IMG/VR virus record: IMGVR_UViG_3300027914_001419
Origin: an uncultured virus (IMG/VR IMGVR_UViG_3300027914_001419)
Taxonomy: Duplodnaviria > Heunggongvirae > Uroviricota > Caudoviricetes
Length of the DNA stretch: 20,000 nucleotides
Strand: one strand, 5' to 3'
Shown here: piece by piece, positions 1,009-15,467 of the stretch
Layout: each line of letters begins with the position of its first letter
Numbering within the stretch: the first letter of the stretch is position 1
Notes under the pieces: generated by a model
What the model was told of the DNA's origin: nothing
What the model saw: the letters and a program-made list of their open reading frames with translations, nothing else
The model's database searches: none
Translations under genes and position numbers: made by a program

Positions 1009-1929
1009 ACGCTGTTCTCCTTTCGGTTTTTCCGCCGTGGCTGTCCCGCCCGGTACGGATATTGTTCTTCTACTATGCGATGCGCCCAGGTCTTTCATGT
1101 GCGCTATCATCTCGTCAAAACTCTTCATGCCGTCTGCCAGACCCGCTTCAATCGCCTGTCTGCCGGTGAAGATCCGCGCATCGGCGACCTCATCGGCGAC
1201 CTTTTGCCGCTCCATGCCGCGATAGTCGGCCATGGAATCGACAAACGCGCCATACAGATAATCGACCCGTTCCTGCATCTGGCCCCGGTCCTCTTCGGAC
1301 AGCGGCCCGTAGGGATGGCCGACGCCCTTGTATTTCCCGGCGGTAATCAGCGTGGTTTTTTCCCCGCGCTTTTCTTCCTGTTTAGAGATATCCCGGTGCA
1401 TGGCAATGACGCCTATGGAGCCAAGCTCCGTGGCGTTGCTGCCGATGTAGGTGGCTTCCGTGGCCGCTCCCAAAAGCTGGGCCGCGCTGGTCATGTAACC
1501 ATCGGTCCAGGCCATGAGCGGCTTTATCGCCGAGGCGTTGCGGAGAAATTCGGCCGTGTCGAACAACTGGTTGACCGCGCCGCCGGGGGAATCGAAATTG
1601 AGCAGGATAGCGGTCACGGCCGGGTCCTTCAGCGCGCTTTCCACATCGTTGCGGATGGCCGCGTAGGAGGTGGCACCGGAGATCTCCTGAAACATCGTCG
1701 CCCGCGGAATCATCGGTCCCATTACCGGGATGACCGCTACCCCGTCCATAACCGTCGTGGGGAGCCGCGACCCGTCCAGCCGCTTGCCGGTTGACGCCTC
1801 GATGCGGGCGATGTCCTCTGGAGACAACCGCCCGTTACGGGTCAGGTGCGCCTCGTAGATGTCCCACATCAACGTCAGGGTCTCGCCCCGGATAGCCCAG
1901 GGGCTCTGTAAAATCGTCAGTACACTCAT
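607..1929 (-). CDS. S49-family prohead protease / capsid assembly protein (lambda gpC-like)
   Basis: Motifs FDSPGG, MTSAAQ, GSIGV, TAGKYK and ARIFTGRQAIEAGLADG. Follows the portal gene with an ATGA overlap. Confidence 0.92.
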   Translation of the reverse strand: MSVLTILQSPWAIRGETLTLMWDIYEAHLTRNGRLSPEDIARIEASTGKRLDGSRLPTTVMDGVAVIPVMGPMIPRATMFQEISGATSYAAIRNDVESALKDPAVTAILLNFDSPGGAVNQLFDTAEFLRNASAIKPLMAWTDGYMTSAAQLLGAATEATYIGSNATELGSIGVIAMHRDISKQEEKRGEKTTLITAGKYKGVGHPYGPLSEEDRGQMQERVDYLYGAFVDSMADYRGMERQKVADEVADARIFTGRQAIEAGLADGMKSFDEMIAHMKDLGASHSRRTISVPGGTATAEKPKGEQRMTREDLQQQHPALYAEIFEEGKQAGIAEGRTAGANDERARVMSILDIPGPSAKAHRDIIMDGVKNGLSAGDTALALQRKEAEVLAKAADDIQTGATQAAPVVDASMDAASEKVKEAACGDAMARAAEDWVKRN

Positions 1930-3596
1930 TCCGCCTCCGGAAGATCGGGGTTCTGGACAGGGGCTTCCTTTACGGCGGCCGGGGTTTCCGTCTTCGCGCC
2001 CGCCGGGGGTATCCCTTGTGTTGCCCGCATCTTCTCTTCCTTGCCCCGCTGTACGATGTTGGTTTCCCAGTCGCCGCCGTTCATGGCCGCTGTTTCCTGG
2101 GATAGCGTCGTGATGCCGAGGGCCGAGCGCCGTTCCGCCGCCTCCACCTCGTCCACCGGGTTAATAATCGGTTTGGACGGGCCGGTCCATTCGTGCCCCA
2201 TCCACGCCGCACGAATCATCGGATCGCTGAAAAAGCCGGGGGCGTAGATAGTGCCCTGGGCCACTTCCTGGGCCAGCCACACGGCAAAGACAGGGTCGCA
2301 ATGGTCTTCGACCAGTTCGGCCCGCATGCACAGGAAGAAACGCCAGGCGTCCTCCATGGCGGCCCGCGCCGCGCTGTAGCTGGCGGTATAGTGCTTTATC
2401 ACTACCTCATACGGGATGCCGATACGCAGCCCGATCTGGCGCACGCACGCGAGAAAGAACGGGTCGAAATTGGCGTTGGGCAGGTTCGGGTCCGCTGTCT
2501 GTATCTCTTGGTCTCTCCCCAGGCCGACCACCGCGCCGTAACCCAGGCGGATATTGCCGGTCGTGGCCGCGCTCTCGCCTGCTCCGGTCTGAACCGTCAT
2601 GCCCGGCAGCCGCCGCACCGCCGGGGCCAGCGGCGTATTGTCCAGACTCTGGCCGGTGCTCTTGATGAACACGGTAAAGAGCGCCGACACCACGGCCCGC
2701 TTCAGTTCGGCCTTGGTCATACGCGCCATGTCCTTGAGGGGCTCCAGCACTCCGGCCAGCATGGGAATGCCCCGCGTCTGGCTCGGCCGTTCGGGCCGGT
2801 AGTAGTGGAGCACGTTCCGCAGGCCGGTTTTGCTGTTGAAGGCCGGGTACGGGTCCCATACCATCCGGTCGGGGTCGGCATAGAGCACATTGCCGGGATG
2901 GCCGCGAGTGAGCCAATAGCGCACCGGCGCGCCGTCTTCGTCTTTCTCCACGCCGCCGGTAAAGCCCCGGCGGTCGGGCTGTTTGTTGGGGTTGCACAGC
3001 CGGTCGGCCTCTATCGCCTGCATCCGGAGGGGGTTGGTCAGGCCCGGCAGTGGTTTGACCGGCAGAAGGGTGATGGCCTCGCCATTGATGATGCGGGACC
3101 GGAGGGCAAGCTGGGCATGGCCGTTAAAAGACAGGGTCCGCTCGATGTCGCAATCCTTTGAGCCTGCCCACAGCTTCCAGCGGCGCTCGAGGTTGCGTTG
3201 CCAGGCGTCGGCTTCCGGGTCGGACAGGCCCAACAGTTCGCGGTCGATGTGGCTTTGCAGGGTGAGCCCGACGCCGACGGTATTCATGATGGTGGTGTTG
3301 ACAATGCCGCCCGCCACCGGCTGGTTGCGCACTGCGTCACGCGAACGGGAGCGCATGTCGTCCAGACCGGCCAGGGATGAATCGGCATCGGAGGGAAATG
3401 GGGTCCATTCGCCCATCTCGCGGCCAGCTCGATCCGCGCCGTCATACCCGCCGCCGGAGGAAAAGGCTTCCGACACCAGGGACATCTGGGCGCGGGCCTG
3501 CATCCGTTGCGAGGCCCGGACCGGCGCGAAATACTCCACGATCCTGTCGATGAAGTTTCCCGCTATCAATTTTTCAACTGCGCGGTCTTTCAGCAT
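1926..3596 (-). CDS. Phage portal protein, lambda family
   Basis: 556 aa. Motifs RSRDAVRN, VGVGL, IEADRL, GGVEKDEDGAPVRYW, RPSQTRGIP, YSAARAA and INPVDE. Lies between the gpW-like and S49 genes. Confidence 0.95.
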   Translation of the reverse strand: MLKDRAVEKLIAGNFIDRIVEYFAPVRASQRMQARAQMSLVSEAFSSGGGYDGADRAGREMGEWTPFPSDADSSLAGLDDMRSRSRDAVRNQPVAGGIVNTTIMNTVGVGLTLQSHIDRELLGLSDPEADAWQRNLERRWKLWAGSKDCDIERTLSFNGHAQLALRSRIINGEAITLLPVKPLPGLTNPLRMQAIEADRLCNPNKQPDRRGFTGGVEKDEDGAPVRYWLTRGHPGNVLYADPDRMVWDPYPAFNSKTGLRNVLHYYRPERPSQTRGIPMLAGVLEPLKDMARMTKAELKRAVVSALFTVFIKSTGQSLDNTPLAPAVRRLPGMTVQTGAGESAATTGNIRLGYGAVVGLGRDQEIQTADPNLPNANFDPFFLACVRQIGLRIGIPYEVVIKHYTASYSAARAAMEDAWRFFLCMRAELVEDHCDPVFAVWLAQEVAQGTIYAPGFFSDPMIRAAWMGHEWTGPSKPIINPVDEVEAAERRSALGITTLSQETAAMNGGDWETNIVQRGKEEKMRATQGIPPAGAKTETPAAVKEAPVQNPDLPEAE

Positions 3597-4189: not shown

Positions 4190-4417
4190 TTACGCCTTTT
4201 CCGGCTTTATCTCGATGATGAATGTTTCGTTGAAATAGTTTGCAAGTAGTTGAATTGTGTCAATGGTGGGGTGCCCGATTCCCTTCATGTACCGGCTAAC
4301 CGCCGATTGAGTCAGTCCGATTTCTCTTGCGATAGCTGATTGACTGGACTTGGCAACGGCTTCACGAATCAAAATAACTATTCTTTCCGGTGTTTTTGAA
4401 TTGCCTCTACCCTTCAT
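4190..4417 (-). CDS. Small XRE/Cro-C1-type HTH protein (paralog 4)
   Basis: SQSAIAREIGLTQSAVSRYMKGIGHP HTH; ends TFIIEIKP; ATGA overlap with the upstream paralog. Confidence 0.85.
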   Translation of the reverse strand: MKGRGNSKTPERIVILIREAVAKSSQSAIAREIGLTQSAVSRYMKGIGHPTIDTIQLLANYFNETFIIEIKPEKA

Positions 4418-4665
4418 AAAACCCCCACAATATCGCCAGATTGCGGCTTGATTTGAATATCAAATGTTTTGCCGGTATAGTCTGAGAGGCGCTGAAGCGT
4501 GGTAAACGTTGGCTCCCCAATTCCATCACGATAGCGGGCGAGTGAAGCCATACCGATCCCTGTTGCATTGGATAATGCCAAAAGTCTACTTTTCGTCAAA
4601 AGCTCTTTAACCAGGTCAATCACCCAAACTGGTGTTTTTCCTGTGCCTCTTCCTCTTGGGCTCAT
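4414..4665 (-). CDS. Small XRE/Cro-C1-type HTH protein (paralog 3)
   Basis: GKTP...LSNATGIGMASLARYRDGIGEPTFTTLQRLSDYTGKTFDIQIKP; ATGA overlap with the upstream paralog. Confidence 0.85.
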   Translation of the reverse strand: MSPRGRGTGKTPVWVIDLVKELLTKSRLLALSNATGIGMASLARYRDGIGEPTFTTLQRLSDYTGKTFDIQIKPQSGDIVGVL

Positions 4666-4877
4666 AGATCCTCCGGTTTAATCTCAATGGTGAAAGTGGT
4701 TTTGAAATAGTTTGCCAACTTTTGAAGACTGGCATATGTCGGCTCGGTTGCTCCTGCGAGATATTTGTCCACGCTGTTCGGGTTAATTCCTGATTTTTTG
4801 CAAAATTGGTTCAGGCTTATCTTCTCAGGAATTTCTGAATTGAGTAGGTCAACAACTCTTTGGAATGTTTTTCCCAT
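4662..4877 (-). CDS. Small XRE/Cro-C1-type HTH protein (paralog 2)
   Basis: SLNQFCKKSGINPNSVDKYLAGATEPTYASLQKLANYFKTTFTIEIKP; GGGGGA RBS. Confidence 0.85.
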   Translation of the reverse strand: MGKTFQRVVDLLNSEIPEKISLNQFCKKSGINPNSVDKYLAGATEPTYASLQKLANYFKTTFTIEIKPEDL

Positions 4878-4909
4878 AATTCCCCCTGCTCTATCTAAAG
4901 GCTGAAAAG

Positions 4910-5407
4910 CTAATCCTGTTGCCCGGACGGTTTAATCTCTATAATAAATGTACGCCCAGTATAATCAGCTAGTCGCTGTATACTAGAGAGACGGGGTTCA
5001 CCTATGCCCTTCAAATATCGCTGTATACTCAAAAGAGTTAATCCAGACTCTCTGGCCACAGCGCTTTGGCCCTTTTCTGCGACTAATTCCGTCAGCAACT
5101 CAACCAACCATTCAGGTGTTTTTCCCAGTATGATTTCCTGAGATTTATTTGATGTAATCAGCTCCATTTCAGTTATAGCCATAACTGATATCTCAAGATA
5201 TTCGGCAATCTTTGTGACAAAAGCCTCTGTCAACCTCTGTTTTCCAGTTAATAATCTACCAACGTAAGACGATGAGAAACCGGAACTGGCTCCGATTTCA
5301 GCAAATAATCCGTAAGTCCCCCATTCTCCCCTCTTAGTAAGTTCTTCGATTATTCGCTGTAATACAAATGTCTGATTTTCTTTTAAGAACATTGCTATCG
5401 TTTGCAT
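4910..5407 (-). CDS. Double-HTH XRE-type protein (paralog 1), 165 aa
   Basis: Likely start ATG 5407 (MQTIAMF) after GGGGAGGG. N-terminal HTH IGASSGFSSSYVGRLLTGKQRL; C-terminal HTH GQSAVARESGLTLLSIQRYLKGIGEP...TFIIEIKP. Confidence 0.8.
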   Translation of the reverse strand: MQTIAMFLKENQTFVLQRIIEELTKRGEWGTYGLFAEIGASSGFSSSYVGRLLTGKQRLTEAFVTKIAEYLEISVMAITEMELITSNKSQEIILGKTPEWLVELLTELVAEKGQSAVARESGLTLLSIQRYLKGIGEPRLSSIQRLADYTGRTFIIEIKPSGQQD

Positions 5408-5516
5408 TATCCCTCCCCACTGCTTAATCTTCGTTTCGATTCCCTGGCATCTACCCAAATTGGCCGTGCGCAGGTGCCCCGGCTGCCAGCGAAACGATAG
5501 ACGGCGGCCGCAGCGA

Positions 5517-5879
5517 CTACTCCGCCCACCGCGCCGGGTCAATCTCGTACTCACGGCGGAAGACCTCCACCGATACGGCGGTTATCCTGATGCCCTGAGA
5601 GGGCCGCAAGCCGTTTTCGCCCTCTTTCGCGCCGTCATCAACCGCTATCAGCTTGCCCTCTTTTACCCGGCCCAGTGCCCACTTGCCGCTTTTTCCGAAG
5701 ATAGCCCCGGCCTCGTCGGGCGAATAGCAGAGGTTTTCCAGGATATGCCGCTTCTTTACCTCGGAAATGTCCGCCATTGTCACCCTCAGCCGTGGCATAT
5801 CCTTGTTCTGTTCGATCCGTATCGCTTCCTTTTCCGTCACGCACCACCCCGTTTCCCGCCTTGCGGCGTCAGATTCCAT
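5517..5879 (-). CDS. Xis/MerR-like winged-HTH DNA-binding protein, possibly a late-gene regulator
   Basis: YSPDEAGAIFGKSGKWALGRVKEGKLIAV resembles an HTH_17-type domain. Overlaps the terL stop; exact start uncertain. Confidence 0.55.
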   Translation of the reverse strand: MESDAARRETGWCVTEKEAIRIEQNKDMPRLRVTMADISEVKKRHILENLCYSPDEAGAIFGKSGKWALGRVKEGKLIAVDDGAKEGENGLRPSQGIRITAVSVEVFRREYEIDPARWAE

Positions 5880-7782
5880 TACTCAGCATTTGCGCCGCGC
5901 CGCCTGACTGATCCATCAGGTTTTCCCGCCGCGCATTATGAAAATTGCTCACATTCGCCAGCACCAGCGCCATTACCTCGCAGTCCCAGAGGTGATTCGC
6001 CCTGTTGTTCGGGTTCTGCCACAGCCCGCCCGAGTCTCTCCCTTCGGCGCAGCAGTGCCGGGCGTACTCCTCCAGGCTGTTCCGCTGGTCAACAGCGGCT
6101 CCAGACGCTTTCAGCTTCCATTGCTCCGTGGTGAATCCGCTGTGCAGAAGCCACGCGCCGGGGTCCGATGGCTCCACCATCAGCCTCAGCGCCAATTCGT
6201 CCTTGAATTTGTGGGTATTAAAGGTATGCAGCCGCACCACGCCCGGTAAAGGCTTGTTGGTGCCTGGGAAATTGGCGATGGATGAGACGCTCACCAGTTT
6301 GGTAGGGTTTCCGGAGGCCCCTTGCGCCGGGATGACTCCGGTTTTGAGGCACCACAGGTATATCTCGGTGGTCCGGTGCCCCTGGGTGTCGATAATCGCC
6401 CACGTAACCACATGCTCCGTCCCCTTCGCATCGTACCAGTTCCCGTACAGGAGCCGCTCCACCCCTGCCAGGTCCGTGACGTACCCTGCCTTTACCAGCC
6501 AGGAGGAGAGGACCTCCCCGAACCGCCAGGCCCGGACCGTATACCAGAACCCCTTGTCCTGGGTGTCAATGTGCATGGTCAGGGCATCTATGCCATGGGG
6601 CACAAGGCCGTCCGGCCGGGTGTCGCACAGCCGGAGGATGTAGTCTTCCTGCCGTTCGCTGATTTCAGGAATGTAGTCTATGGCTTCGTAGCCGTTGGCC
6701 CAGGCGGTTTTGGCGTTGAGGTCGCCGGTTTTGGCCTTGAGCCAGGCGGCGGCTATTTCGGTGAGGGGGATGTCGAGGCATTCCCAGGCCCGGTGGTGGA
6801 AGCCGACCTTTGAGGGGCGGGGTATGTCGGCGCCTTTGACGCAGTACCAGCGGCCATGGCGGATGGCGTGTTCGCGTTTGCGGTCGTCCCATACTGCGCC
6901 ACAGTTGCAGGCATATTCGACGCCGGTCTGTTCGATGGTTTCGGGGGTGGCGTCGTTCGGTATGATGAGGTGTTCGGCGTCCATGCGGACGAGTTCGCCG
7001 CAGTCGGGGCATTTGAGCCGGTATTCCCATGTCTGGTGACAGTTGAGCATGCCCTTGTAAACGAATTTCCCGGCGGGGGTGCTGGCGAAGAAGCGTTTGT
7101 AGCGGCCTTTGTAGGTACGGTTGCGCTTTTTTATGAGGGTTATGGGGTCGGCTTCCTTGCCGGCCATTTCCGGGTATTTGTCTATTTCGTCGCCAAAGCA
7201 GTGCTTGGCGCTCCAGGTGGCCATGCTGGTGGCGCTGTTGGCGTGGGCCGGAAAGATGGTGACGCCGTGTTGCAGGTTGATGCGGGCCAGGCTGGTGTCG
7301 TCCATTTTGCGCGAGAGGTAGCGGGAGAGCCGGGGCGATTTCTGCAGGGTGGGCTTGAGCTTGCCTCCGGTGATTTTAGTGGCGGCGTCTTCTGTTGGCA
7401 TGAGATAAAAAATGTTGCCGGGATCGCAGTCTATGGCCCAGCCGATGCAGTTGAGCATGGTGTTGGTTTTGCCGCTCTGCTCGATGCCACAGAACCAGAC
7501 TTCGCGGACCCAGGGCTGACCGAAGGTGTCCATGATCTTGACGGTGTGCGGGGCGTAGTCGTGCCGCCAGGGGCCTTCGTGGGCGCCGTCGGTGACGATG
7601 CGGTATTTTTCGGCCCATTCGGAAACCTTTATCTTTTCCGGGTGGCGCATGCGCAGGCGCACGGGCCGCGGGATGGCGAAGGAGACCGGGCGGCCCCGGA
7701 GGGTTTGCCGGACTTGTTCGGGCAGCCATTCGGGCAGGCCAAAGCGGGTGGTGAAGCTGATATGAAGGGCTGGCTGGTTCAT
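5869..7782 (-). CDS. terL: Terminase large subunit, lambda GpA family, 637 aa
   Basis: True start is ATG 7782 (MNQPALH), with an ATGA overlap with the upstream gene. Motifs: SEWAEKYR, EQSGKT (Walker A), CFGDEIDKYP (Walker B), ASTP, CPDCG..CNCG, IDTQD and NHLWDCEV (nuclease). Confidence 0.95.
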   Translation of the reverse strand: MNQPALHISFTTRFGLPEWLPEQVRQTLRGRPVSFAIPRPVRLRMRHPEKIKVSEWAEKYRIVTDGAHEGPWRHDYAPHTVKIMDTFGQPWVREVWFCGIEQSGKTNTMLNCIGWAIDCDPGNIFYLMPTEDAATKITGGKLKPTLQKSPRLSRYLSRKMDDTSLARINLQHGVTIFPAHANSATSMATWSAKHCFGDEIDKYPEMAGKEADPITLIKKRNRTYKGRYKRFFASTPAGKFVYKGMLNCHQTWEYRLKCPDCGELVRMDAEHLIIPNDATPETIEQTGVEYACNCGAVWDDRKREHAIRHGRWYCVKGADIPRPSKVGFHHRAWECLDIPLTEIAAAWLKAKTGDLNAKTAWANGYEAIDYIPEISERQEDYILRLCDTRPDGLVPHGIDALTMHIDTQDKGFWYTVRAWRFGEVLSSWLVKAGYVTDLAGVERLLYGNWYDAKGTEHVVTWAIIDTQGHRTTEIYLWCLKTGVIPAQGASGNPTKLVSVSSIANFPGTNKPLPGVVRLHTFNTHKFKDELALRLMVEPSDPGAWLLHSGFTTEQWKLKASGAAVDQRNSLEEYARHCCAEGRDSGGLWQNPNNRANHLWDCEVMALVLANVSNFHNARRENLMDQSGGAAQMLSNGI

Positions 7783-8756
7783 GCGGCGTCCTCTTGATGG
7801 TCTTCGAACATGCCTTCTATTCGTCCGGCGGCCAGGGTGTCGTTGAAGGCCTTGGCGAGGATTTCTTCCATGCCTTCGTAGACTTCCGGGGCTCTTGTGG
7901 GGTCTCCGCCGGAGAGGTGGATGATGTGGGCGGACCCGATGTGGAGCTGGTGGCGGATGGTGTCGCGCAGGGATCCGACGAGGGCGGCGAGTTGCGCCCA
8001 GGCTTCGTCGCGGTGGAGCCATTTGGCGTTTTGTTCGCGCTGGAGGTCTTCGGCCTGGATTTCGGCTTTTTTGGCGTCGGCGATGGCTTTGCGGGTGTCG
8101 GCTTCTTCGCGCTGGCCTGCGAGGTCCACGGGAGAGGCGGACCGCCGTTCTACGTCGAGCTGCTGGCCGTATTGGAGGACCTGGAAGCGGGAGACGGTTC
8201 CGTCTTTGTGGACGGAGGGAAAGCCTGCTTCGCAGTCGTTGTAGAATTTGCCGCGGCTGATTTTGTAGCCCTGGGACTGAAGCCAATTGTGGGCCTGGAT
8301 GCGGTTTTTGAAGCGTTCGCCTTCGGGGGCAGGGGCTTCTTCGGGGAAGTAGGCCTGCCAGAGACGGTCGATGGTTTCTTCGTATAGTTCGCGGGCGGCG
8401 TCGAGGTTCGCTTTAGTTTCTTTGCCGGGGTGGTTTTTGAAGGCGAGCATGGTGGCGTCGCGGCCGTCGCGGACCATGGACAGTTCGTCTTTGTCGTTGT
8501 CGGGGACGATTTCGAGCAGCTTTTTGAGCTTGTCGCCTTTGTAGACGATATTTCCGGCTTTTTTGCCTGCGTTGCAGCTCTTGCAGGCGGTTTTGAGGTT
8601 GGAGATTTCGTTTTTGCCGCCTTTTGATACGGGGGTGACGTGATCTATTTCCAGTTCGGCTTCGGTGGCGGATTTGCCGCAATACTGGCAGGTGTAGCCG
8701 TCGCGCCGGAAGACTTCGAAGCGTAGTTTGTCGTTGATTTTTGTCCGATCCGCCAT
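7779..8756 (-). CDS. HNH endonuclease fused to a probable terminase small subunit
   Basis: N-terminal RFEVFRRDGYTCQYCG...IDHVTPVSKGG.NEISNLKTACKSCNAGK is a clear HNH domain. C-terminal REEADTRKAIADAKKAEIQAEDLQRE..WLHRDEA resembles the Nu1-type coiled coil. Translationally coupled to terL. Confidence 0.7.
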   Translation of the reverse strand: MADRTKINDKLRFEVFRRDGYTCQYCGKSATEAELEIDHVTPVSKGGKNEISNLKTACKSCNAGKKAGNIVYKGDKLKKLLEIVPDNDKDELSMVRDGRDATMLAFKNHPGKETKANLDAARELYEETIDRLWQAYFPEEAPAPEGERFKNRIQAHNWLQSQGYKISRGKFYNDCEAGFPSVHKDGTVSRFQVLQYGQQLDVERRSASPVDLAGQREEADTRKAIADAKKAEIQAEDLQREQNAKWLHRDEAWAQLAALVGSLRDTIRHQLHIGSAHIIHLSGGDPTRAPEVYEGMEEILAKAFNDTLAAGRIEGMFEDHQEDAA

Positions 8757-8777
8757 TATGCCCTCGTTGTTTTCTTT

Positions 8778-9062
8778 CTATTTGTCGAACAATTCGAGTT
8801 GGATTTTTGCTGGCTCAACAATGACCAGGCCCCAGCTTTCGATTGTTTCCATGGTTGCCCGCCTGTCGTGGTCCCGGCTCTGCCATGACCAGCGGCCGGG
8901 AGAGTCCATTGTGTAGAGCTGGAGAACGTATTGCCTGACCGGCCAGGACGACTCCATCCAGGGTCCGAATTGCGTCACCGTTTCTACCTCCCGGACCCGT
9001 AAGCGGACCCTGGGGTCTGCTGGCGGCGGCGGTTGCAGTATGTCTCCTGGGTAGAGTTGCAT
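8778..9062 (-). CDS. Hypothetical protein, 94 aa
   Basis: ATG 9062 (MQLYPGDIL) after AAAGGAGA; ends QLELFDK. Confidence 0.65.
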   Translation of the reverse strand: MQLYPGDILQPPPPADPRVRLRVREVETVTQFGPWMESSWPVRQYVLQLYTMDSPGRWSWQSRDHDRRATMETIESWGLVIVEPAKIQLELFDK

Positions 9063-9116
9063 TTGGGTTCTCCTTTGGCTGGCATGGCATAAATGTTCCG
9101 AATGGGATGTTGAGCA

Positions 9117-9140
9117 GCGCGTCACCCGCGGCTCCCGTTA
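9117..9140. repeat. Truncated third copy (one 24-nt arm) of the 115-bp palindromic element
   Basis: gcgcgtcacccgcggctcccgtta is identical to the right end of the copies ending at 9695 and 10714. Includes the stop codon of CDS 9138-9515. Confidence 0.9.
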
Positions 9141-9515
9141 AACCGTCTTTGCAAACTCGCGCAGGGTACGGGCAATAAACCAGCCGGTGCCGCATCCGGC
9201 GGAAAATTCTTGCGGCTGATGTGTTTCGGCAATTTCCGCCGCTTTCAACAGCCCATTCCGCAGCCCACGGATGTATAAATCAGCCTCATTCATTCCGATC
9301 CCGCTGCCGTCCTCCAACTGGAGATATTGCGCGGATATATCACCTATTGTGTCGCTCGCAATCCGTGCGGGGCCACGTTTTGTAGAAATGCACATGTTGC
9401 ATTCTTCCCCGTTGGGATTGCTGGCACCCATATCAAAACCAATTTTGCAATAACCCAAGATGGCTACAGGAACACCGTTTTTCTGCAATTCTTTTGATGC
9501 TTCATCCCAAGTCAT
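9138..9515 (-). CDS. Hypothetical cassette-borne protein, 125 aa
   Basis: ATG 9515 (MTWDEASKEL) after AAAGGA. Bounded on the coding strand by GTTAAACC (9539-9532) and its exact complement GGTTTAAC (9144-9137), which contains the TAA stop. Confidence 0.7.
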   Translation of the reverse strand: MTWDEASKELQKNGVPVAILGYCKIGFDMGASNPNGEECNMCISTKRGPARIASDTIGDISAQYLQLEDGSGIGMNEADLYIRGLRNGLLKAAEIAETHQPQEFSAGCGTGWFIARTLREFAKTV

Positions 9516-9536
9516 AAGTTTTCCTTTCGCTGGTTT

Positions 9537-9579
9537 AACCACCGCTACCAGCCGTTTCCGGCTGAAGCGGAGGCCCGTT
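9537..9579 (-). mobile_element. Short attC-like recombination hairpin
   Basis: Minus strand: AAC-GGGCCT-CCGCTTCAGCCG-GAAA-CGGCTGGTAGCGG-TG-GTT(AAAC). An imperfect bulged stem between AAC and a GTTRRRY core. Confidence 0.6.
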
Positions 9580-9691
9580 CACGCGACTGCGTCGCGTGAA
9601 CGGGAGCCGCGGGTGACGCGCCGATGAAGCAACTTGCGCGTGAACACGCGGGTAGAAGCGCACGCTTGGCGGCGCGTCACCCGCGGCTCCC
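9577..9691. repeat. 115-bp gene-less palindromic element, copy 1
   Basis: Hairpin gttcacgcgac-tgc-gtcgcgtgaac, followed by a perfect 25-bp inverted repeat (9599-9623 / 9670-9694). Differs from copy 2 at two positions (9631/10650 and 9640/10659). Confidence 0.95.
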
Positions 9692-9703
9692 GTTATCCGT
9701 GAA

Positions 9704-9886
9704 TTACCACGGAAGATGTTTTTCGCACCACACGTAAAATCTTTCTCCTAGTTTTTCTAGGGCCACATCGAAGTGATCCGACAAGGAATCTCCACTTTTG
9801 CCTGGCAAGTGGCAAATTAGTTTCAGCGCGAAATAAATTACTATTCCGTAAATGAACCAAAAAATTAAAGGTAGTATTGCTTCCAT
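9704..9886 (-). CDS. Small cassette-borne membrane protein, 60 aa
   Basis: ATG 9886; MEAILPLIFWFIYGIVIYFALKLICHL is a hydrophobic helix. AT-rich. Bounded by GTTATCCGT (9927-9919) and its exact complement ACGGATAAC (9700-9692). Confidence 0.65.
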   Translation of the reverse strand: MEAILPLIFWFIYGIVIYFALKLICHLPGKSGDSLSDHFDVALEKLGERFYVWCEKHLPW

Positions 9887-9924
9887 AATTAGTACCCTTT
9901 CCCGCTGGTCCACTGATAACGGAT

Positions 9925-9968
9925 AACCAGCACTATGCACCCGCCAGAGCGGGTAATGCTTGATCCTT
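9925..9968 (-). mobile_element. Short degenerate attC-like hairpin
   Basis: Minus strand: (T)AAG-GATCA-AGCATTACCCGC-TCTG-GCGGGTGCATAGTGCT-G-GTT(ATCC). Starts at the HTH stop codon; AAG replaces AAC. Confidence 0.5.
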
Positions 9969-10146
9969 ATGATGCTTGATTCGACTTCTTCCAGAGTTCG
10001 AGCCAGGAAAAAGCAATTCCCGGCACCCTCCGCTTTCCGCCCTCCCAGTCCTGCCAGGTCCGGTAAGGGGTATTGCTGTATTCGGCTGCTTGCTTCATGG
10101 AGAGGCCCGCCGCCTTCCGGGCCTCTCGAAGCTGTTCGGCTGTCAT
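9967..10146 (-). CDS. XRE-family HTH protein, 59 aa (below the ORF-track cutoff)
   Basis: Translated by eye: MTAEQLREARKAAGLSMKQAAEYSNTPYRTWQDWEGGKRRVPGIAFSWLELWKKSNQAS. ATGA overlap with the upstream gene. Confidence 0.88.
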   Translation of the reverse strand: MTAEQLREARKAAGLSMKQAAEYSNTPYRTWQDWEGGKRRVPGIAFSWLELWKKSNQAS

Positions 10147-10364
10147 GCTTCGACCAAATAAAACGAGCCATCTGTTTTGGTCGGGACCAAGTACTCCTTG
10201 CCGAGGTCAGACACATACACCATGCATCGCTCACCTGCCACCCAAACAACATTCCCCTGTCGGTATTTCGGAGTGACGGTACTCAGTCCATCATGGTCAG
10301 GCTCACCCAGCAAACTGCACAATGGATACTGTTCCCCGGTTTCTCTTTCATATGCTCTAATCAT
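10143..10364 (-). CDS. Hypothetical protein, about 73 aa, first gene of a two-gene operon with the HTH
   Basis: AGGGAGG RBS followed by ATG 10364 (or 10370), MIRAYERETGEQYP...; lies downstream of a consensus promoter. Confidence 0.75.
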   Translation of the reverse strand: MIRAYERETGEQYPLCSLLGEPDHDGLSTVTPKYRQGNVVWVAGERCMVYVSDLGKEYLVPTKTDGSFYLVEA

Positions 10365-10404
10365 CGTCATTGCCTCCCTTGGTTTGTTGTTCATCTTGAT
10401 TCCT

Positions 10405-10456
10405 ATTATACACGCATTGCGTATGCTGTCAACAATAAAAATGTGCATTGCGTGTA
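10405..10456 (-). promoter_or_regulatory. Consensus sigma70 promoter with operator-like palindromes
   Basis: TTGACA (10432-10427), 16-nt spacer, TATAAT (10410-10405). The spacer contains the dyad ACGCA-A-TGCGT, and a related site TACACGCAATGCACAT lies at 10456-10441. Confidence 0.85.
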
Positions 10457-10485
10457 TTTTTTTACCAAAGGGAGGCAAGCATCAA

Positions 10486-10598
10486 AACAAAACATTCGAC
10501 CGGCCCCCAGAACACCGCCTCTCTGACTGTCTCACTGAATATTGCGGCATCTCTGTTTCGTCCCCACCCACGCTGAAGGCCGGTCAATTCAAACCGTT
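10486..10598 (-). mobile_element. attC-like recombination hairpin (about 113 nt)
   Basis: Minus strand: AAC-GGTTTGA-ATTGACCGGCCTTCAG ... CTGGGGGCCGGTC-G-AAT-GTTTT-GTT. Paired arms at 10573-10585 and 10498-10510, with a single extrahelical G and an unpaired spacer next to the AAC/GTT cores. Confidence 0.65.
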
Positions 10599-10710
10599 CA
10601 CGCGACTGCGTCGCGTGAACGGGAGCCGCGGGTGACGCGCCGATGAAGCGACTTGCGCATGAACACGCGGGTAGAAGCGCACGCTTGGCGGCGCGTCACC
10701 CGCGGCTCCC
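10596..10710. repeat. 115-bp gene-less palindromic element, copy 2
   Basis: Direct repeat of 9577-9691 at an offset of 1019 bp with 2 substitutions. Abuts the TAA stop of CDS 10712-11065. Confidence 0.95.
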
Positions 10711-10711
10711 G

Positions 10712-11065
10712 TTATCTGTATTCCTCGATAGTGCCCTTAACGATCTTGTAGTTGATCGCCTGAGACTCCCCCTTGATTTCAACAGTTCCGAGACCAGGCA
10801 TCCCTTGAGTGATGGTAATAGCGGTGCCCGGCTCTCCCGGACCCTTAGCGAAATGGATTCGGATTTCCTCCATGCTGTCGATTACGATGTCCATTTGTCT
10901 CTCCGAGTACGACTCGCTCATCACCGCACGCATTGCTTCCCGCATCCGCTCCAGGTTGCCCGGCAGAGTGTAATATTCCAGAGCCGACCCAGCCGCCCGA
11001 AGAACCGAATCAAGCGCCGTATCTACATTTTTATTGCCGTCAATTTTGGTATCAGATTGGTTCAT
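10712..11065 (-). CDS. Hypothetical protein, 117 aa
   Basis: ATG 11065 (MNQSDTKID) after GGAGG. The stop TAA is part of a TAAC core. An internal RBS-ATG (GGAGAG...MDIVIDSMEE) suggests a possible fusion of two genes. Confidence 0.65.
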   Translation of the reverse strand: MNQSDTKIDGNKNVDTALDSVLRAAGSALEYYTLPGNLERMREAMRAVMSESYSERQMDIVIDSMEEIRIHFAKGPGEPGTAITITQGMPGLGTVEIKGESQAINYKIVKGTIEEYR

Positions 11066-11211
11066 CGTCTTTCCTCCGTGCGTCCACCACGCACACCAAG
11101 CACAGCCACACCCACTTGCTGCCTGTCCAATGCGCGATAAATGCACTCGTGCAGTCGCCCTGACAGGCCTCCTTGCCGCACTCATGGCACCTGTCGGCGC
11201 AGGCTGGTCCG

Positions 11212-11511
11212 TTACCCATTGCTGCTATCCCACACCGAACCGCGTAGCATCCGCGCCATCAACAGGTCAGGATTGCATCGGCGAACCGTCTTCACTACAG
11301 GCGCAGACTCCACGGGCAGCGGCATTTCGACCCTTTTCGGGCGGCCCTGTTTCGCCTCCTTGCGGCGTTGCTTTTCCTGCGTCGTTTTTTGCTGCCGATA
11401 GCATTTGCTGTCGCAGTACATCCGCATGGCGAACTTTGCCCAAGTTTCGTCCGGCCTCATAACCAGCGGTTTTCTGCAATTTTCGTTCTTGCACAGCCTG
11501 GCCTTATTCAT
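11212..11511 (-). CDS. Hypothetical Cys-rich basic protein (possible Zn finger)
   Basis: CKNENC...YCDSKC; GAGGAG RBS. Confidence 0.65.
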   Translation of the reverse strand: MNKARLCKNENCRKPLVMRPDETWAKFAMRMYCDSKCYRQQKTTQEKQRRKEAKQGRPKRVEMPLPVESAPVVKTVRRCNPDLLMARMLRGSVWDSSNG

Positions 11512-11535
11512 GGTTGCTCTCCTCTATTACCTTTT

Positions 11536-11811
11536 TCAGCAGGCGGCCTCCACCCTGGCCGCTCCGAGCAGGGCGTAACCGGCTATGTCCCGGTAGGGGG
11601 ATTCGCCGAGGGCGTCGCGGTCGGTGGCGATACGGAACAGTTTGTCTATGATTCGGACTACACACAGGGCGTCACTCATTTGTTCTGGGGCTATGCCGTC
11701 CGGGTAGAGGATCCGCATTACCTGCCCGGCCTGGCCGAAGCTGTCGCCGTAGGCGAGTTGTTTTTCTTCTACGATTGCACCTATCTCCTGGGCGAGTTGC
11801 ACGTATTTCAC
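11536..11811 (-). CDS. DUF1599 / nucleotide-modification-associated-domain-like protein
   Basis: GTG start (GTGA overlap, AAAGGAG RBS). Motif KQLAYGDSF...RIIDKLFRI...ESPYRDIAGYALL. Confidence 0.65.
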   Translation of the reverse strand: MKYVQLAQEIGAIVEEKQLAYGDSFGQAGQVMRILYPDGIAPEQMSDALCVVRIIDKLFRIATDRDALGESPYRDIAGYALLGAARVEAAC

Positions 11812-12002
11812 TTTTTCTCCCTTTCGTTCCACCATTGGCGGGCGTGTTCGCGGATTGCTCCTGTCGGCCCTTCGCAGTAGCAGTCGCGGCAGCAGATGAA
11901 GTATTCAATGGCGTTGTCTATGCCGATTTCGTCCATGTACAGGCTGGTCCCGCCGCAGAACGGGCAGGGCTTCAGGCCGGTTTCGTCGGGAATTATCATC
12001 AT
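11808..12002 (-). CDS. Lar-family restriction alleviation-like Zn-finger protein
   Basis: LKPCPFCGG...CRDC...GP...ARQWWNER. Confidence 0.8.
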   Translation of the reverse strand: MMIIPDETGLKPCPFCGGTSLYMDEIGIDNAIEYFICCRDCYCEGPTGAIREHARQWWNEREKK

Positions 12003-12532
12003 GCCGCCTCCGCCCGGATGAACCGGCCGTCTTTGCCCCTGAGCCGCTTGGGGACGGGTTTTGCGTACAGTTTATCGACGTGCTCGCCGAGGGCGTTGAA
12101 CATTCGCTTTGCTTTGGGGATGTTTATGCCCCTGCTTTGCCTGGCTATGGCGTCAAGAAGTTTGTCGAGGGATTTAAGCGCGGCGGCGGCCCGGTTGTGC
12201 TGGTGCGAGTTTATGGGCGCGAGGCGGGTCACTTCGTCCACCAGGGCGACGGCGTAGGCAGCGCGGTATTCGTGCAGGTTGCCGGTGAGGCCCGCTTCTT
12301 TGGCCGCTGCCGGGAGCATGTCGGAGATCCGCCCGGCGTTTATGCTGTCTTCGTAACCGGAGCCGGAGGGCATTACGGAGTCCAGGAGGCGGTTGGCGGC
12401 GTGTTCGACGGATTCGGCCCGGTTCCATTGTTCGCTGAGGCGGCGGACGTTGCGCTTTATTTCGTCGGCGGCGGCCAGGGCGTAGGATATGCCGAAGACG
12501 GCGAAGGACAGGGTTGCTTTGGTTGGTTGCAT
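11999..12532 (-). CDS. Hypothetical phage protein
   Basis: AAGGAG RBS; ATGA coupling to the next gene; C-terminal RGKDGRF motif. Confidence 0.65.
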   Translation of the reverse strand: MQPTKATLSFAVFGISYALAAADEIKRNVRRLSEQWNRAESVEHAANRLLDSVMPSGSGYEDSINAGRISDMLPAAAKEAGLTGNLHEYRAAYAVALVDEVTRLAPINSHQHNRAAAALKSLDKLLDAIARQSRGINIPKAKRMFNALGEHVDKLYAKPVPKRLRGKDGRFIRAEAA

Positions 12533-12544
12533 GTTGGTTTCTCC

Positions 12545-12931
12545 TTAGAACAGTCCGGCCTGGACGGATGGTTTTTGCACCTCCGGCAGATCTCCGGTCT
12601 GTGTGTGGGATTCGATAACTGAACCCGGGAAGGCGGCGGATACTTCCGGAAGCAGGCTGATAACTTCGGAAAGCAGGCCGGGTTTCTTTGCTCGCAGTAT
12701 TTCGATGGCCTGGGCAAATGTGACGGCTCTGCCTTTTTTTCCCATTCTGTTCATCCAGTAGGCGGTTCCGCAGAAGTAACAGGGCTTGTCTTCGATGATG
12801 AATTCGGCGACTATTTCGCGGCCTTCGGATTCGGTGAAGAATTGTTCCAGAGTTTTGCCCGCTATGGCGGAGAGCCTGAGATTGTCCCAGTTTTCGCCTT
12901 TTTTTTCTTTCATGGACCAGGTGATTTCCAT
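12545..12931 (-). CDS. Hypothetical phage protein
   Basis: GAGGG RBS; fills the gap downstream of the helicase in the operon. Confidence 0.65.
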   Translation of the reverse strand: MEITWSMKEKKGENWDNLRLSAIAGKTLEQFFTESEGREIVAEFIIEDKPCYFCGTAYWMNRMGKKGRAVTFAQAIEILRAKKPGLLSEVISLLPEVSAAFPGSVIESHTQTGDLPEVQKPSVQAGLF

Positions 12932-12938
12932 TTGTCCC

Positions 12939-14312
12939 TCAGTACGGATCGTTTTCCGCCGGGGCCTGCGTGTACCTCCCGCGGATTCGGGATTGCTTTC
13001 CTTCCGTATATTTGGCGGCTACGGAGTCATATGGGGTGAACCCTTTGAACTGGAGAAACGCCGGGTTCATGTCTACGGTGAATTTGAGTCCGGCTTCTCC
13101 GTTGGTGTTTTTAAGGACGGAACAGATGATGTTTTTGTCTTTGTCGCGCCAGAGACCGATCATGAAACGGGCATACTGCTCGATGGCCCCGGATCCTTTG
13201 CCCGCTTCCATGGTCATTTCAGCGCCTTGCTGAAGCCCGGCCTGGGGCCTTTTGGTGTGAGCCAGGACGATGACCGGCACATCAAGGCGTTTGGCCATGT
13301 TCATGATGGCCGGGGCGTTGGTTTCGATGAGCTCGAACAGGCCGGACGCTCCGGGCGCAGTGGTGAGCCCCAGAAGATCTATGCCGATGGCGCCGATTTC
13401 CCCGTATTTGCGGCGGGCAAGCCGGGTGTAGTGCTCGATCTGGTCGATTGTGAGCCCGCCATGGTCGCAGATGAGCAGCCGATCTACCCCTTTGGATGAG
13501 AGGGCGGAGAGTACGTTTTCGCGGTAGCCCTGATGGTGATGAAAGCCGCTCTCGATGTTGTAGGTGAAATGGCCCATGCCAATTTGCACGGTGCGCTCGA
13601 ACATGCGGATGTCGGACATTTCGAGGGAGAAGTAGGGATACCATTTGTCTGTCCGGCCGCAGGCGCCGATGAAGATGTTTTGCAGCAGGGCGCTTTTGAA
13701 GAGGCCGGGGCCGCCGAGAATGTACATGACTTCCTTCGGGCCAACCCCTCTGATGACGCTGTCGATTTCCGGAAAGCCGGTGGTGAAGCGCAGTTTTTCG
13801 ATGGTGCGGACGTAGTGCTGGTACTTGTCCGCCAGGGCGTTGATGGTCTGGAACGGGTCGGTGGAGACATGGCCGGAGGTGACGTTTTCGAGCCGGTTGA
13901 TTCCGCTGGAGATGATTTCGTCCAGGTCAGCGTTTTCGTCACAGGCGGCTGTGGCGATTGCCCGAGCCGCTTCTATGGTGTTGCGGGCCAGTGATGATTT
14001 GCGTACCCGGCCGCTGTAATAGGCGATGTTTGCGGAGGTGGGAACGTAGTCAATCAGTTCCGCCAGGTACTGAGCTCCTCCGGCTCTGGAAAGGGAGCCG
14101 TCCGCCTTGAGCTGTCCGGTAACCGTGATGAGGTCTACCGGGCGGTCGGTGGCGCGTAACAGCCGGACGGCGTCGAATATCAGGCGGTGGCGCTCTTCGA
14201 AGAAATCCCCGGCGGTTAGCTGTTCCGAGGCGGTGTCACAGGCTTCAGGGTCCAGGAGAATCGCGCCGATGACGGCCATTTCGGAGTCTATGTCTTGGGG
14301 TTGCTTTCTCAT
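12939..14312 (-). CDS. DnaB-like replicative helicase (divergent motifs)
   Basis: DnaB N-terminal domain PQDIDSEMAVIGAILLD...DFFEERHRLIFDA...VDLITV..L...GGAQYLAEL...PTSANIAYY. C-terminal TGFPEIDSVIRG, FSLEMS and GSGAIEQ. Start probably ATG 14312. Confidence 0.88.
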   Translation of the reverse strand: MRKQPQDIDSEMAVIGAILLDPEACDTASEQLTAGDFFEERHRLIFDAVRLLRATDRPVDLITVTGQLKADGSLSRAGGAQYLAELIDYVPTSANIAYYSGRVRKSSLARNTIEAARAIATAACDENADLDEIISSGINRLENVTSGHVSTDPFQTINALADKYQHYVRTIEKLRFTTGFPEIDSVIRGVGPKEVMYILGGPGLFKSALLQNIFIGACGRTDKWYPYFSLEMSDIRMFERTVQIGMGHFTYNIESGFHHHQGYRENVLSALSSKGVDRLLICDHGGLTIDQIEHYTRLARRKYGEIGAIGIDLLGLTTAPGASGLFELIETNAPAIMNMAKRLDVPVIVLAHTKRPQAGLQQGAEMTMEAGKGSGAIEQYARFMIGLWRDKDKNIICSVLKNTNGEAGLKFTVDMNPAFLQFKGFTPYDSVAAKYTEGKQSRIRGRYTQAPAENDPY

Positions 14313-14319
14313 CCGGTCC

Positions 14320-14607
14320 TCAGAATGGGCATTTGCCGTCGCTTGACGGGGCTTCGCCGTCAAGCAGGGCTATGGCCTGCCGGCGTATTTCGGATTTCAG
14401 GGCTTCATCGGTTATGTTGACGTGTTTTTTCCAGGCATCATTGCCGTCGCGGCCGGTGAATTTTTCGGCCGGTTCGCTGATCCAGGTTTCGCCGTTGTCT
14501 TTGCGGCACAGCGTAATACCGCGGACGATGAGCGGCTGGAATTGAACGTCGAAGGCGGCAACCAGAATTCCCGCTGTTTCAATTTTGCGAAAGTTTACGA
14601 TTTTCAT
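14320..14607 (-). CDS. SpoVG-like nucleic-acid-binding protein
   Basis: LVAAFDVQF..LIVRGITL...GETWISEP.EK...DG...WK..V pattern; located in the replication module. Confidence 0.6.
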   Translation of the reverse strand: MKIVNFRKIETAGILVAAFDVQFQPLIVRGITLCRKDNGETWISEPAEKFTGRDGNDAWKKHVNITDEALKSEIRRQAIALLDGEAPSSDGKCPF

Positions 14608-15379
14608 CAGTCCTCCAAGGGGTGAAGTCTCTCAATCTCTGGCCGTAGTCGGGTAGTATGCCGAGGTCGTAACAGGTGTCTTCGATGGCGGTGTTGCATT
14701 TGCCGCCAAAATCGTTGATGCAGCGGACAAGGCCTTCGATGGTGGGTGATCCGCGAGGGAACCGGCGTTCGTCGGGTATGGTGAGGTAGACACAGGCTCT
14801 GGAGATGAGCTCTTCGAGGTCGATGTTTTTGAGGAGCTTGGCGATCATGGCATAGTGCCGGTCCAAGGCCACGAATGCGGACTTTGTTATCCGGCCATAG
14901 GCGTGCTGCCACCAAGCGACGAAGTATTGATGGTCGGAGGGCGCGCTTTTTGGTGGCGCGCTCCCTTTAGGGATATTGGTTCTTTTGGGTTCAAGGGGTG
15001 ACATTTTGTCATTAATTGATGACATTTTGTCATTAATCGGTGTGTCTGGGCCGGGAATTAATGACATTTTGTCATGATTTTTTGACGGCTCCGGCTGAAT
15101 TAATGACATTTTGTCATTAATTTTTAGCTGATATATGTTGGATCGATAGGATCCGTTTTCCCTGGTCCGCGGTTTGTTTACCAGAAAACCCCTCTGTTCC
15201 AGTTTTACTATGCCCCGGATTACGGTTCTGACGCTATCGCCGCACTTCTTCGCAAGCACTTCCCTGCTGGGCCAGCATACGCCTTCGTCATTGGCGCTAT
15301 CTGCCAGAGCCAGCAACAGCATTTTTTCCGATTTTGGAAGGTCCATCATCCAGACGATAGACATCAGTTTGATGCTCAT
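14579..15379 (-). CDS. Phage replication initiator with N-terminal winged HTH, 266 aa
   Basis: ATG 15379 after GAGGA. MSIKLMSIVW...EKMLLLALADSANDEGVCWPSREVLAKKCG.SVRTVIR.IVKLEQRGFL. Contains internal iterons and lies upstream of the helicase. Confidence 0.85.
   Translation of the reverse strand: MSIKLMSIVWMMDLPKSEKMLLLALADSANDEGVCWPSREVLAKKCGDSVRTVIRGIVKLEQRGFLVNKPRTRENGSYRSNIYQLKINDKMSLIQPEPSKNHDKMSLIPGPDTPINDKMSSINDKMSPLEPKRTNIPKGSAPPKSAPSDHQYFVAWWQHAYGRITKSAFVALDRHYAMIAKLLKNIDLEELISRACVYLTIPDERRFPRGSPTIEGLVRCINDFGGKCNTAIEDTCYDLGILPDYGQRLRDFTPWRTDENRKLSQN
14999..15122. repeat. Probable phage replication origin: four palindromic iterons
   Basis: TGACATTTTGTCA starts at 14999, 15020, 15062 and 15104 (spacings 21, 42 and 42 bp), flanked by ATTAAT/AATTAA, inside the initiator gene. 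Confidence 0.85.
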
Positions 15380-15467
15380 TATTTCCTCATGGTTCCGGCC
15401 CCGGATTACGCGATAAAAAATCTGATGCGCAGGCGGGGAATTACACCCCGCCTGAATCATTGCCGGA

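Follow-up and report, generated by a model that had tools for sequence, protein, structure and literature searches.

Integrase-less clusters of attC sites (CALINs) are already known in phages: in one survey, 17 CALINs, three complete integrons, and one In0 were reported among 10,705 phage genomes, and IntI1 was found to recombine some of the phage attC sites (Qi et al., 2023; PMC9892861). The arrangement is rare, and a further case is added here from the virus record IMGVR_UViG_3300027914_001419. The window analyzed is a 20-kb (20,000-nt) stretch of this tailed-phage genome, whose host is probably a relative of Geobacter; positions are those of the window, and its given strand is the plus strand to which all strands refer. 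Positions 9114–10713, between the replication and packaging genes, very probably constitute a CALIN assembled by crossover between G and TT (written G^TT), with sites that are perhaps still substrates for an integron integrase (IntI) supplied in trans.

Like the phage CALINs of PMC9892861, the array consists of consecutive same-strand attC sites between small genes mostly without known function, and no intI gene is nearby. Unlike them, as far as the description used from that survey goes, its attC sites belong to the family of Geobacteraceae chromosomal integrons, its cargo is antisense to attC, and it includes a 118-nt cassette without an open reading frame (ORF), present as two full copies and a remnant; furthermore, the window is known from sequence alone.

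Geobacteraceae sedentary chromosomal integrons (loci L092, L094, and L095, with IntI scores of 346–349 bits against TIGR02249) provide the second point of comparison. They share with the window a common attC architecture—that is, YAAC, 1–3 nt, a stem whose 5′ arm has one bulged base, 5–6 nt, and GTT—as well as a consensus inner stem and the 118-nt mini-cassette, which in the chromosomes occurs both at attI and within arrays. The window differs in having neither intI nor attI, and the chromosomal ORFs run with the attC top strand. An ORF-less integron cassette is a G^TT-bounded unit that contains an attC site and no gene; compared with such cassettes, the mini-cassette is almost attC alone, with a 5′ half that is an inverted copy of its 3′ arm, giving a perfect 22–25-bp duplex that can be extended by an 11-bp R′–R″ pair. 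No description of this form was found in literature searches that were not aimed at it, and a non-exhaustive literature search on integrons and attC in Geobacter and prophages returned no cassette array in a Geobacter phage.

attC Sites of the Geobacteraceae Family

The attC sites used for modeling were taken from arrays adjoining true intI genes (346–349 bits) in three Geobacteraceae genomes (G083, G082, and G007). A MAFFT alignment of 19 attCs, in which the stems were misaligned, yielded no structure with RNAalifold and only a poor result in a column-pair search; the covariance model was therefore seeded from four well-aligned attCs with the structure set by hand. In the three intI loci, this seed model gave 23 matches at E ≤ 0.6; all but one were full length, and each of these 22 was on the cassette strand predicted from the orientation of intI. 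The resulting model R3, which is family-specific and is not that of IntegronFinder, was built from those 23 sites, with no sequence in training from the window or from G002, a metagenome-assembled genome of an "uncultured Geobacter sp." considered below.

The window was searched with R3 on both strands with filters off, after a short calibration, so that the E-values are rough. Nine matches at E ≤ 1 were obtained in the 20 kb: three are full length, all on the plus strand within 1.1 kb (Table 1), and the remaining six are partial and lie on the stems of the mini-cassette. The full-length sites coincide with the hairpins at 9537–9579, 9925–9968, and 10486–10598 that a first-pass annotation of this DNA, made by a model from the letters and a list of ORFs, had pointed out. 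Judged by their match to this model, the window sites are members of the same attC family as those of Geobacteraceae integrons.

The strand preference of R3 is clear for all three sites. In 14 of the 16 evaluable reference attCs, unpaired nucleotides are in excess on the 3′ side; in DNA folds of the window plus strand, the numbers on the 5′ and 3′ sides are 3 and 6 for cassette E, 5 and 5 for cassette D, and 8 and 9 for cassette B-C, so that the excess is clear for E only. The plus strand is thus assigned as the attC top strand on the basis of the strand-specific R3 matches, the orientation of the mini-cassette relative to attI described below, and, more weakly, the 3′ excess of unpaired bases. 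This assignment overturns the earlier one, in which the coding strand was taken as the attC strand: the genes are antisense to attC. Bulged bases on the 3′ arm, then regarded as atypical, are expected of the bottom strand, which is what the coding strand is here. As this case also shows, arrays whose genes point the "wrong" way can be recovered with an attC model specific to the family.

Complementary Cassette Ends

Three inverted pairs of words delimit the gene cassettes, all of them found where the first-pass annotation had placed them: GTTAAACC and GGTTTAAC at 9137–9144 and 9532–9539 (8/8 matches), GTTATCCGT and ACGGATAAC at 9692–9700 and 9919–9927 (9/9), and 13-mers at 9966–9978 and 10476–10488 (11/13). 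In each case, R″ fits the start of its own cassette better than the adjacent site, with 8/8 versus 5/8 matches for cassette E, 9/9 versus 4/9 for cassette D, and 11/13 versus 6/13 for cassette B-C. Recombination between G and TT in integrons yields this complementarity between R″ and the cassette's own start, and no other mechanism requires it. As bare words, the pairs are not above chance: in 200 block shuffles, GTT-initiated exact inverted 8-mers (150–700 nt apart, both strands) numbered 3.3 on average and at most 12, compared with 6 in the window, and inverted 9-mers averaged 0.86, compared with 2. The inverted words gain their significance because the boundaries are fixed independently by the attC model, and because each word matches its own cassette start and not the neighbor. 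Since this own-start complementarity is accompanied by a mini-cassette placed exactly at the Geobacteraceae attI crossover point, the units appear to have been assembled by a G^TT crossover of the integron-integrase type; by the evidence of their ends, the cassette units bear its footprint. An integron-type cassette array in a phage, as first proposed, is hence borne out by the attC model and own-start complementarity together.

Along the plus strand, the order is mini-cassette remnant, cassette E, mini-cassette W2, cassette D, cassette B-C, mini-cassette W1, and phage backbone. The three modules had been described as consecutive; the cassette units are real, but two modules are interrupted by the ORF-less 118-nt cassette, which had gone unnoticed. 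The stop codons, which had been placed inside the inverse core, are distributed differently: those of genes E and A lie in the R′ core (G^TTA), and that of gene D lies upstream of the box.

An ORF-Less Mini-Cassette at attI and within Arrays

A 126-nt direct repeat is found at 9575–9700 and 10594–10719 (98% identical), with a shortened third copy at 9114–9140. Read on the cassette strand, the unit is G^TTCACGCGAC-TGC-GTCGCGTGAAC, then stem, loop, and stem, and finally G^TT, with no room for a gene; in W2, R′ (GTTCACGCGAC) and an R″-like box (GTCGCGTGAAC) are accompanied by a perfect stem of 25 bp and, in the loop, a second GCGCGTGAAC box. The start of the mini-cassette, GTTCACGCG, is complementary to two boxes, one 3 nt downstream and the other the GCGCGTGAAC box in the conserved "loop." If this GCGCGTGAAC box is taken as R″, an ordinary attC layout results for the 3′ half of the unit. 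In diverged copies, the 3′ half matches the attC model at full length in three cases (29.9, 20.0, and 18.9 bits) and at nearly full length in a fourth (model positions 5–49 of 53, 24.6 bits); in the window's own variant, the R3 matches are partial only (13.2 bits).

The ends of the mini-cassette are sharp, with mostly unrelated sequences flanking its copies. Matches were found in 7 of 87 Geobacteraceae genomes: five copies with 98–99% identity on three contigs of G002, plus fragments; copies with 76–81% identity covering all or nearly all of the element in four further genomes; and partial matches in two. Outside the element, only one of the three G002 contigs resembles the window, and only slightly. 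Compensatory changes were detected in 5 of the 38 pairs predicted by RNAalifold from the aligned copies, and the long stem is kept (e.g., GGGAGCC/GGCTCCC versus GGGCCCC/GGGGCCC). A scan of genome contigs for the mini-cassette gave 25 loci, of which 20, each a lone match in an unrelated GC-rich genome, were set aside as chance. An IntI above the NCBIfam cut-off (265 bits) is encoded in all five tested mini-cassette genomes other than G002 (292–349 bits) and in none of 14 control genomes.

The junction with attI was located in G083, in which intI faces a minus-strand cassette array with diverse attCs whose head reads ...GATCAATAAGGA-G^TTGAGC. At five loci (G082 C7, G069 C70, G069 C18, G083a, and G066), the GTGAAC end of the repeat is followed by a TCCTTATTGAYCAGACCGGC-like sequence, the reverse complement of the sequence at this array head; the match to the attI-like flank is looser in G066 and exact or nearly so at the other four loci. 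In G069 C70, an IntI gene (292 bits) lies about 900 nt beyond the mini-cassette. The mini-cassette also occurs inside the G083 array, directly after an attC ending in CCGACC-G^TT, and the window repeats this arrangement twice. The unit starts at the attI crossover and ends at G^TT, and is therefore bounded as a cassette is; these boundaries mark the mini-cassette as an integron-mobilized unit. A reading of the repeat as an attC running AAC-stem-GTT on the coding strand was rejected, as the attI junction fixes the opposite orientation. Model R1 of the mini-cassette, when searched against the intI-adjacent loci L094, L095, and L084, gave no further copies. The 118-nt unit, an attC-only cassette that recurs at attI and within chromosomal arrays and has three occurrences in this phage, would suit bench assays of a non-clinical integron system as a compact substrate.

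Four metagenome runs were mapped at a likeness threshold of 90, all as contigs, the depth and gaps of which say nothing on absence. These contigs link the mini-cassette to several flanks, with breaks at or within a few nucleotides of its GTT ends (9574, 9577 twice, 9694, 10710, and 10715). Before 9577, the flank is attI-like in run X1 (CATCAATAAGGA^G) and another sequence in run X4; before 9574, it is an attC tail in X4; and after 9694, 10710, and 10715, three different flanks were found in X1. Contig depths in run X4 sum to 64–388 over the mini-cassette (9540–9727 and 10574–10761), compared with about 7 or less over most of the remaining stretch and 34.5 in a single bin elsewhere (8788–8881). 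This depth suggests many copies in that community, contig depth being a poor measure. Among the joints listed for the mapped contigs, none has the exact form of a circular junction. One X4 contig joins 10714 back to 9573 (31 nt on the short side; thin) and thus points to two mini-cassettes almost in tandem somewhere in that community.

Two copies in G002 (C44, 18097–19948, and C43, 18523–18642) are preceded by GGCCATCAATAAGCC-G^TT, which is attI-like, with no integrase gene adjoining. The C44 site follows UvrA, and both sites look like orphan attI. Integrase genes beside mini-cassettes look damaged or partial in G069 C70 (794–2573), with two N-terminal SAM-like stretches and a frame change, and in G082 C7 (9431–9883), with a 150-aa N-terminal ORF only; an intact IntI is encoded on another G082 contig.

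A Possible Integrase in Trans or an Inert Relic

From these sites, we infer that the array may still serve as a substrate for the host chromosomal integron integrase. Such an integrase, acting in trans on the phage attC sites, would give the phage a means of gaining, losing, or reordering small accessory genes, and the recombinogenic bottom strand would be the coding (minus) strand of the phage.

However, several observations weigh against an array assembled and still exchangeable in this manner. Two of the three attC matches are weak (E = 0.046 and 0.15, on rough E-values), and the attC of cassette D ends in C^TT, not G^TT. The main stem of the mini-cassette is a perfect 22–25-bp duplex with no extrahelical bases. 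All four cargo genes (E, D, C, and B) are antisense to attC, whereas the ORFs of the reference arrays run with the attC top strand. No IntI above the cut-off was found in G002, the best match scoring 82.5 bits. Two comparisons with other phages, moreover, show breakpoints elsewhere than at G^TT. In the unrelated viral contig G089 (57 kb), gene B is all that is shared with the window; this only other copy of the gene is 88% identical, and the likeness (82% DNA identity) spans only 10131–10422, with both breakpoints within the cassette. In addition, a low-depth metagenome contig of a relative joins 9115 to 11121 without the array and gene A, and its ends are not G^TT (27 nt on the short side; weak and thin).

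The C^TT end, the shortened left edge, and these breakpoints make a passive relic a serious rival, which we regard as possible, if rather unlikely. Under this alternative, the array derives from a single entry of part of a host chromosomal integron into the phage, by illegitimate or homologous recombination; it has since ceased to recombine, and accessory genes are turned over by ordinary mosaic recombination. The gene B likeness that stops inside its cassette is evidence for such mosaic recombination as well, and the possible array-less relative would also fit. So would the lack of an integrase: the first-pass annotation was right that none is present in the window, a Phage_integrase (Pfam) domain being found in 0 of 55 ORFs (36 on the minus strand and 19 on the plus strand), and none above the cut-off is present in G002. 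On the other hand, own-start complementarity is intact in all three gene cassettes; the two full mini-cassettes are 98% identical to each other and 98–99% identical to the five copies in G002; and the array lies mid-genome, with no prophage end visible there. Furthermore, a homologue of the gene flanking the array also occurs in a second prophage, next to other cassettes. This prophage, G002 C43, is a different one, with a T4-type terminase and a DnaC-like loader, and has a homologue of the window gene that flanks the array on the left (92% identity over 78 nt). Beside that homologue is a 36-nt mini-cassette remnant, 94% identical to the G069 type, followed by an HNH gene with a 30.3-bit attC and then a T5orf172 gene, with the ORFs running with attC.

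More broadly, an exchangeable array in this phage raises the prospect, tentative and more doubtful than not, that Geobacteraceae temperate phages use the host integron integrase for gene swapping, that the attC-only mini-cassette of about 115 nt is a portable landing pad seeding phage arrays, and that antisense cargo, including a self-regulated Aca2-like module, is expressed by phage transcription. According to two preprints, integron cassettes store many anti-phage defense systems (bioRxiv 10.1101/2024.07.02.601686; bioRxiv 10.1101/2024.07.02.601719). If true, phage gene swapping of this kind would be a phage-side mirror of integrons as anti-phage defense banks. A phage with cassettes of the host integron family would have the same recombination currency open to it; infection would be a route for cassettes between cells, and the phage could exchange small accessory genes without homology.

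It is highly improbable that the 118-nt repeat is a hairpin of the repetitive extragenic palindrome (REP), miniature inverted-repeat transposable element (MITE), or terminator type, spread by a transposase or by selection on RNA structure and unrelated to integrons, with the other hairpins being terminators. The fold is indeed very stable (−90.6 kcal/mol, z = −7.8), the element is dispersed at low copy number, a T-rich tail follows one copy, and G002 contains five Y1-transposase (Y1_Tnp) loci; however, the element shares with those loci only 8–12-nt words. Rfam gave no match at the gathering score, and at E ≤ 10 only sub-threshold matches, mostly to hairpins of the miRNA type and all well short of their gathering scores. 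An unrelated hairpin would also be at odds with the position of the element at the attI G^TT junction and inside arrays, with the scoring of its 3′ half as an attC, and with the fit of the three unique hairpins to the attC model on one strand only. An origin from REP sequences and their associated transposases (REP/RAYT) was rejected, no ends or hairpins linked to a Y1 transposase being found in G002. Mere coincidence of inverted words at module ends in GC-rich DNA, with which the raw GTT-initiated 8-mer and 9-mer counts within the shuffle range would agree, is practically negligible, given that the words are consecutive, lie at boundaries set by the attC model, and match their own cassette start and not the neighbor.

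Cassette Genes and Phage Context

The features of the array and of the surrounding phage genome are collected in Table 1.

Table 1. Features of the cassette array and neighboring phage genes, by position in the window
Feature	Position	Strand	Remarks
Mini-cassette remnant (last ~26 nt)	9114–9139	+	GTT end at 9137–9139; 96% identity to the two full copies; left edge of array
attC of cassette E	9533–9583	+	R3 full length, 25.8 bits, E = 2e-4; R″ GGTTTAAC at 9532–9539; imperfect hairpin; G^TT at 9577–9579
Mini-cassette W2	9577–9694	+	ORF-less, GTT...GTT, 118 nt; model R1, 144.9 bits
attC of cassette D	9921–9972	+	R3 full length, 14.1 bits, E = 0.15; R″ ACGGATAAC at 9919–9927; short imperfect hairpin; degenerate C^TT at 9966–9968
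attC of cassette B-C (long form)	10482–10602	+	113-nt core; R3 full length, 16.2 bits, E = 0.046; R″ CAAGCATCAAAAC at 10476–10488; G^TT at 10596–10598
Mini-cassette W1	10596–10713	+	ORF-less, 118 nt; model R1, 146.2 bits; right edge of array
Gene E	9138–9515	−	125 aa, no known family; TAA stop is the complement of TTA in the G^TTAAACC core
Gene D	9704–9886	−	60 aa, hydrophobic N-terminus; stop at 9704–9706
Gene C	9967–10146	−	59 aa, helix-turn-helix, like N-terminal part of Aca2
Gene B	10143–10364	−	73 aa, no known family; first gene of B-C operon
Promoter of B-C	10405–10457	−	Sigma-70-type consensus; TTGACA-16-TATAAT at 10432–10405, 12/12 matches
Gene A	10712–11065	−	117 aa, abuts W1; not established as cassette
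Replication initiator	14579–15460	−	
DnaB helicase	12939–14363	−	
Run of small genes	~8778–12931	−	No known function
HNH endonuclease and gpA-type large terminase	5869–8286	−	
Four helix-turn-helix genes	4190–5554	−	
Lambda-type portal	1926–3596	−	Head-tail adaptor and S49 protease also on minus strand

The cargo genes run with phage transcription, and the reality of the minus-strand genes is supported by the helix-turn-helix match of gene C and by protein relatives of genes E and B. Gene E has four relatives besides the query at E ≤ 0.001 among nine candidates, the best with 85% identity over 70% of the query; it has no Pfam or PHROG match, and no relative was found in the 87 Geobacteraceae genomes or in IMG/VR. 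At the place of gene D, the scanned ORF, which is in another frame (9693–9860), gave no family match. For gene B, all seven candidates proved to be relatives, none of them informatively named, and a protein atlas search gave no usable match. Gene A does end in TAAC, as the first-pass annotation had pointed out; this ending arises because the mini-cassette abuts the gene, and no attC of its own was found, R3 giving no match to its right in the window.

The B-C cassette has its own promoter, which would drive a small protein and an Aca2-like repressor. Gene C matches HTH_31 (E = 3.3e-6) and, under the 23.8-bit cut-off, Aca2_YdiL (17.1 bits, E = 0.0063); its PDB matches are 7xi5_A (E = 4.8e-7) and, over the first 43 residues only, four Aca2 sequences (E = 0.003–0.0085). 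The promoter is overlapped by a 13-nt inverted repeat (10408–10420 and 10445–10457). By sequence, Aca2 acr-aca operons (PDB 7vjo, 7b5j, 7ezy, and 8w35) have a comparable layout, with an overlapping inverted repeat in the promoter, a small protein, and then a helix-turn-helix protein like the Aca2 N-terminus. Unlike Aca2, the 59-aa product of gene C is without the C-terminal half, and its Aca2_YdiL match stays under the cut-off. The B-C cassette could be a counter-defense (acr-aca-like) or an addiction (toxin-antitoxin-like) module, a toxin-antitoxin pair being just as possible as acr-aca.

In Pfam and PHROG scans of the window, all recognizable phage genes are on the minus strand, and no plus-strand ORF has a Pfam match. 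No tRNA gene was found in the window, and megablast of 8700–11300 against 50,697 phage records returned no match. When IMG/VR was searched with a 20-mer, only a fragment of the same phage was returned (G001, 4.4 kb), which is identical to 10682–15177 save for a 54-nt gap. The missing segment, 14285–14338, lies where the DnaB gene meets the ORF upstream of it, and is an indel of in-frame size between assemblies of one phage.

Elsewhere, R3 found sites on three contigs of G002: six full-length sites on one strand of C26 (E ≤ 0.0011), two on C44 that run straight into mini-cassettes, and one on C43. The C26 sites form an array of at least six attCs (7032–11795) with GNAT, DUF4274, and DUF6547 cassettes, flanked by Vsr and a C-5 cytosine methylase. 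The viral contig G089 has no match to the IntI model; it has eight marginal attC-model matches at E ≤ 1, seven on one strand, with four within 2.4 kb around gene B and antisense to it. The regions concerned are L098 (G089 C1), 6555–8968, and L099, 1608–1709.

A second accessory island in the window, at 4190–5554, consists of four consecutive small helix-turn-helix genes of low GC content (0.41–0.50, compared with about 0.6 in the neighbors); it sits between the large terminase and the head-tail adaptor and contains no attC-model match. Finally, within the replication-initiator gene, 15014–15125 contains two overlapping self-matches of about 70 nt with 79% identity, possibly origin iterons.

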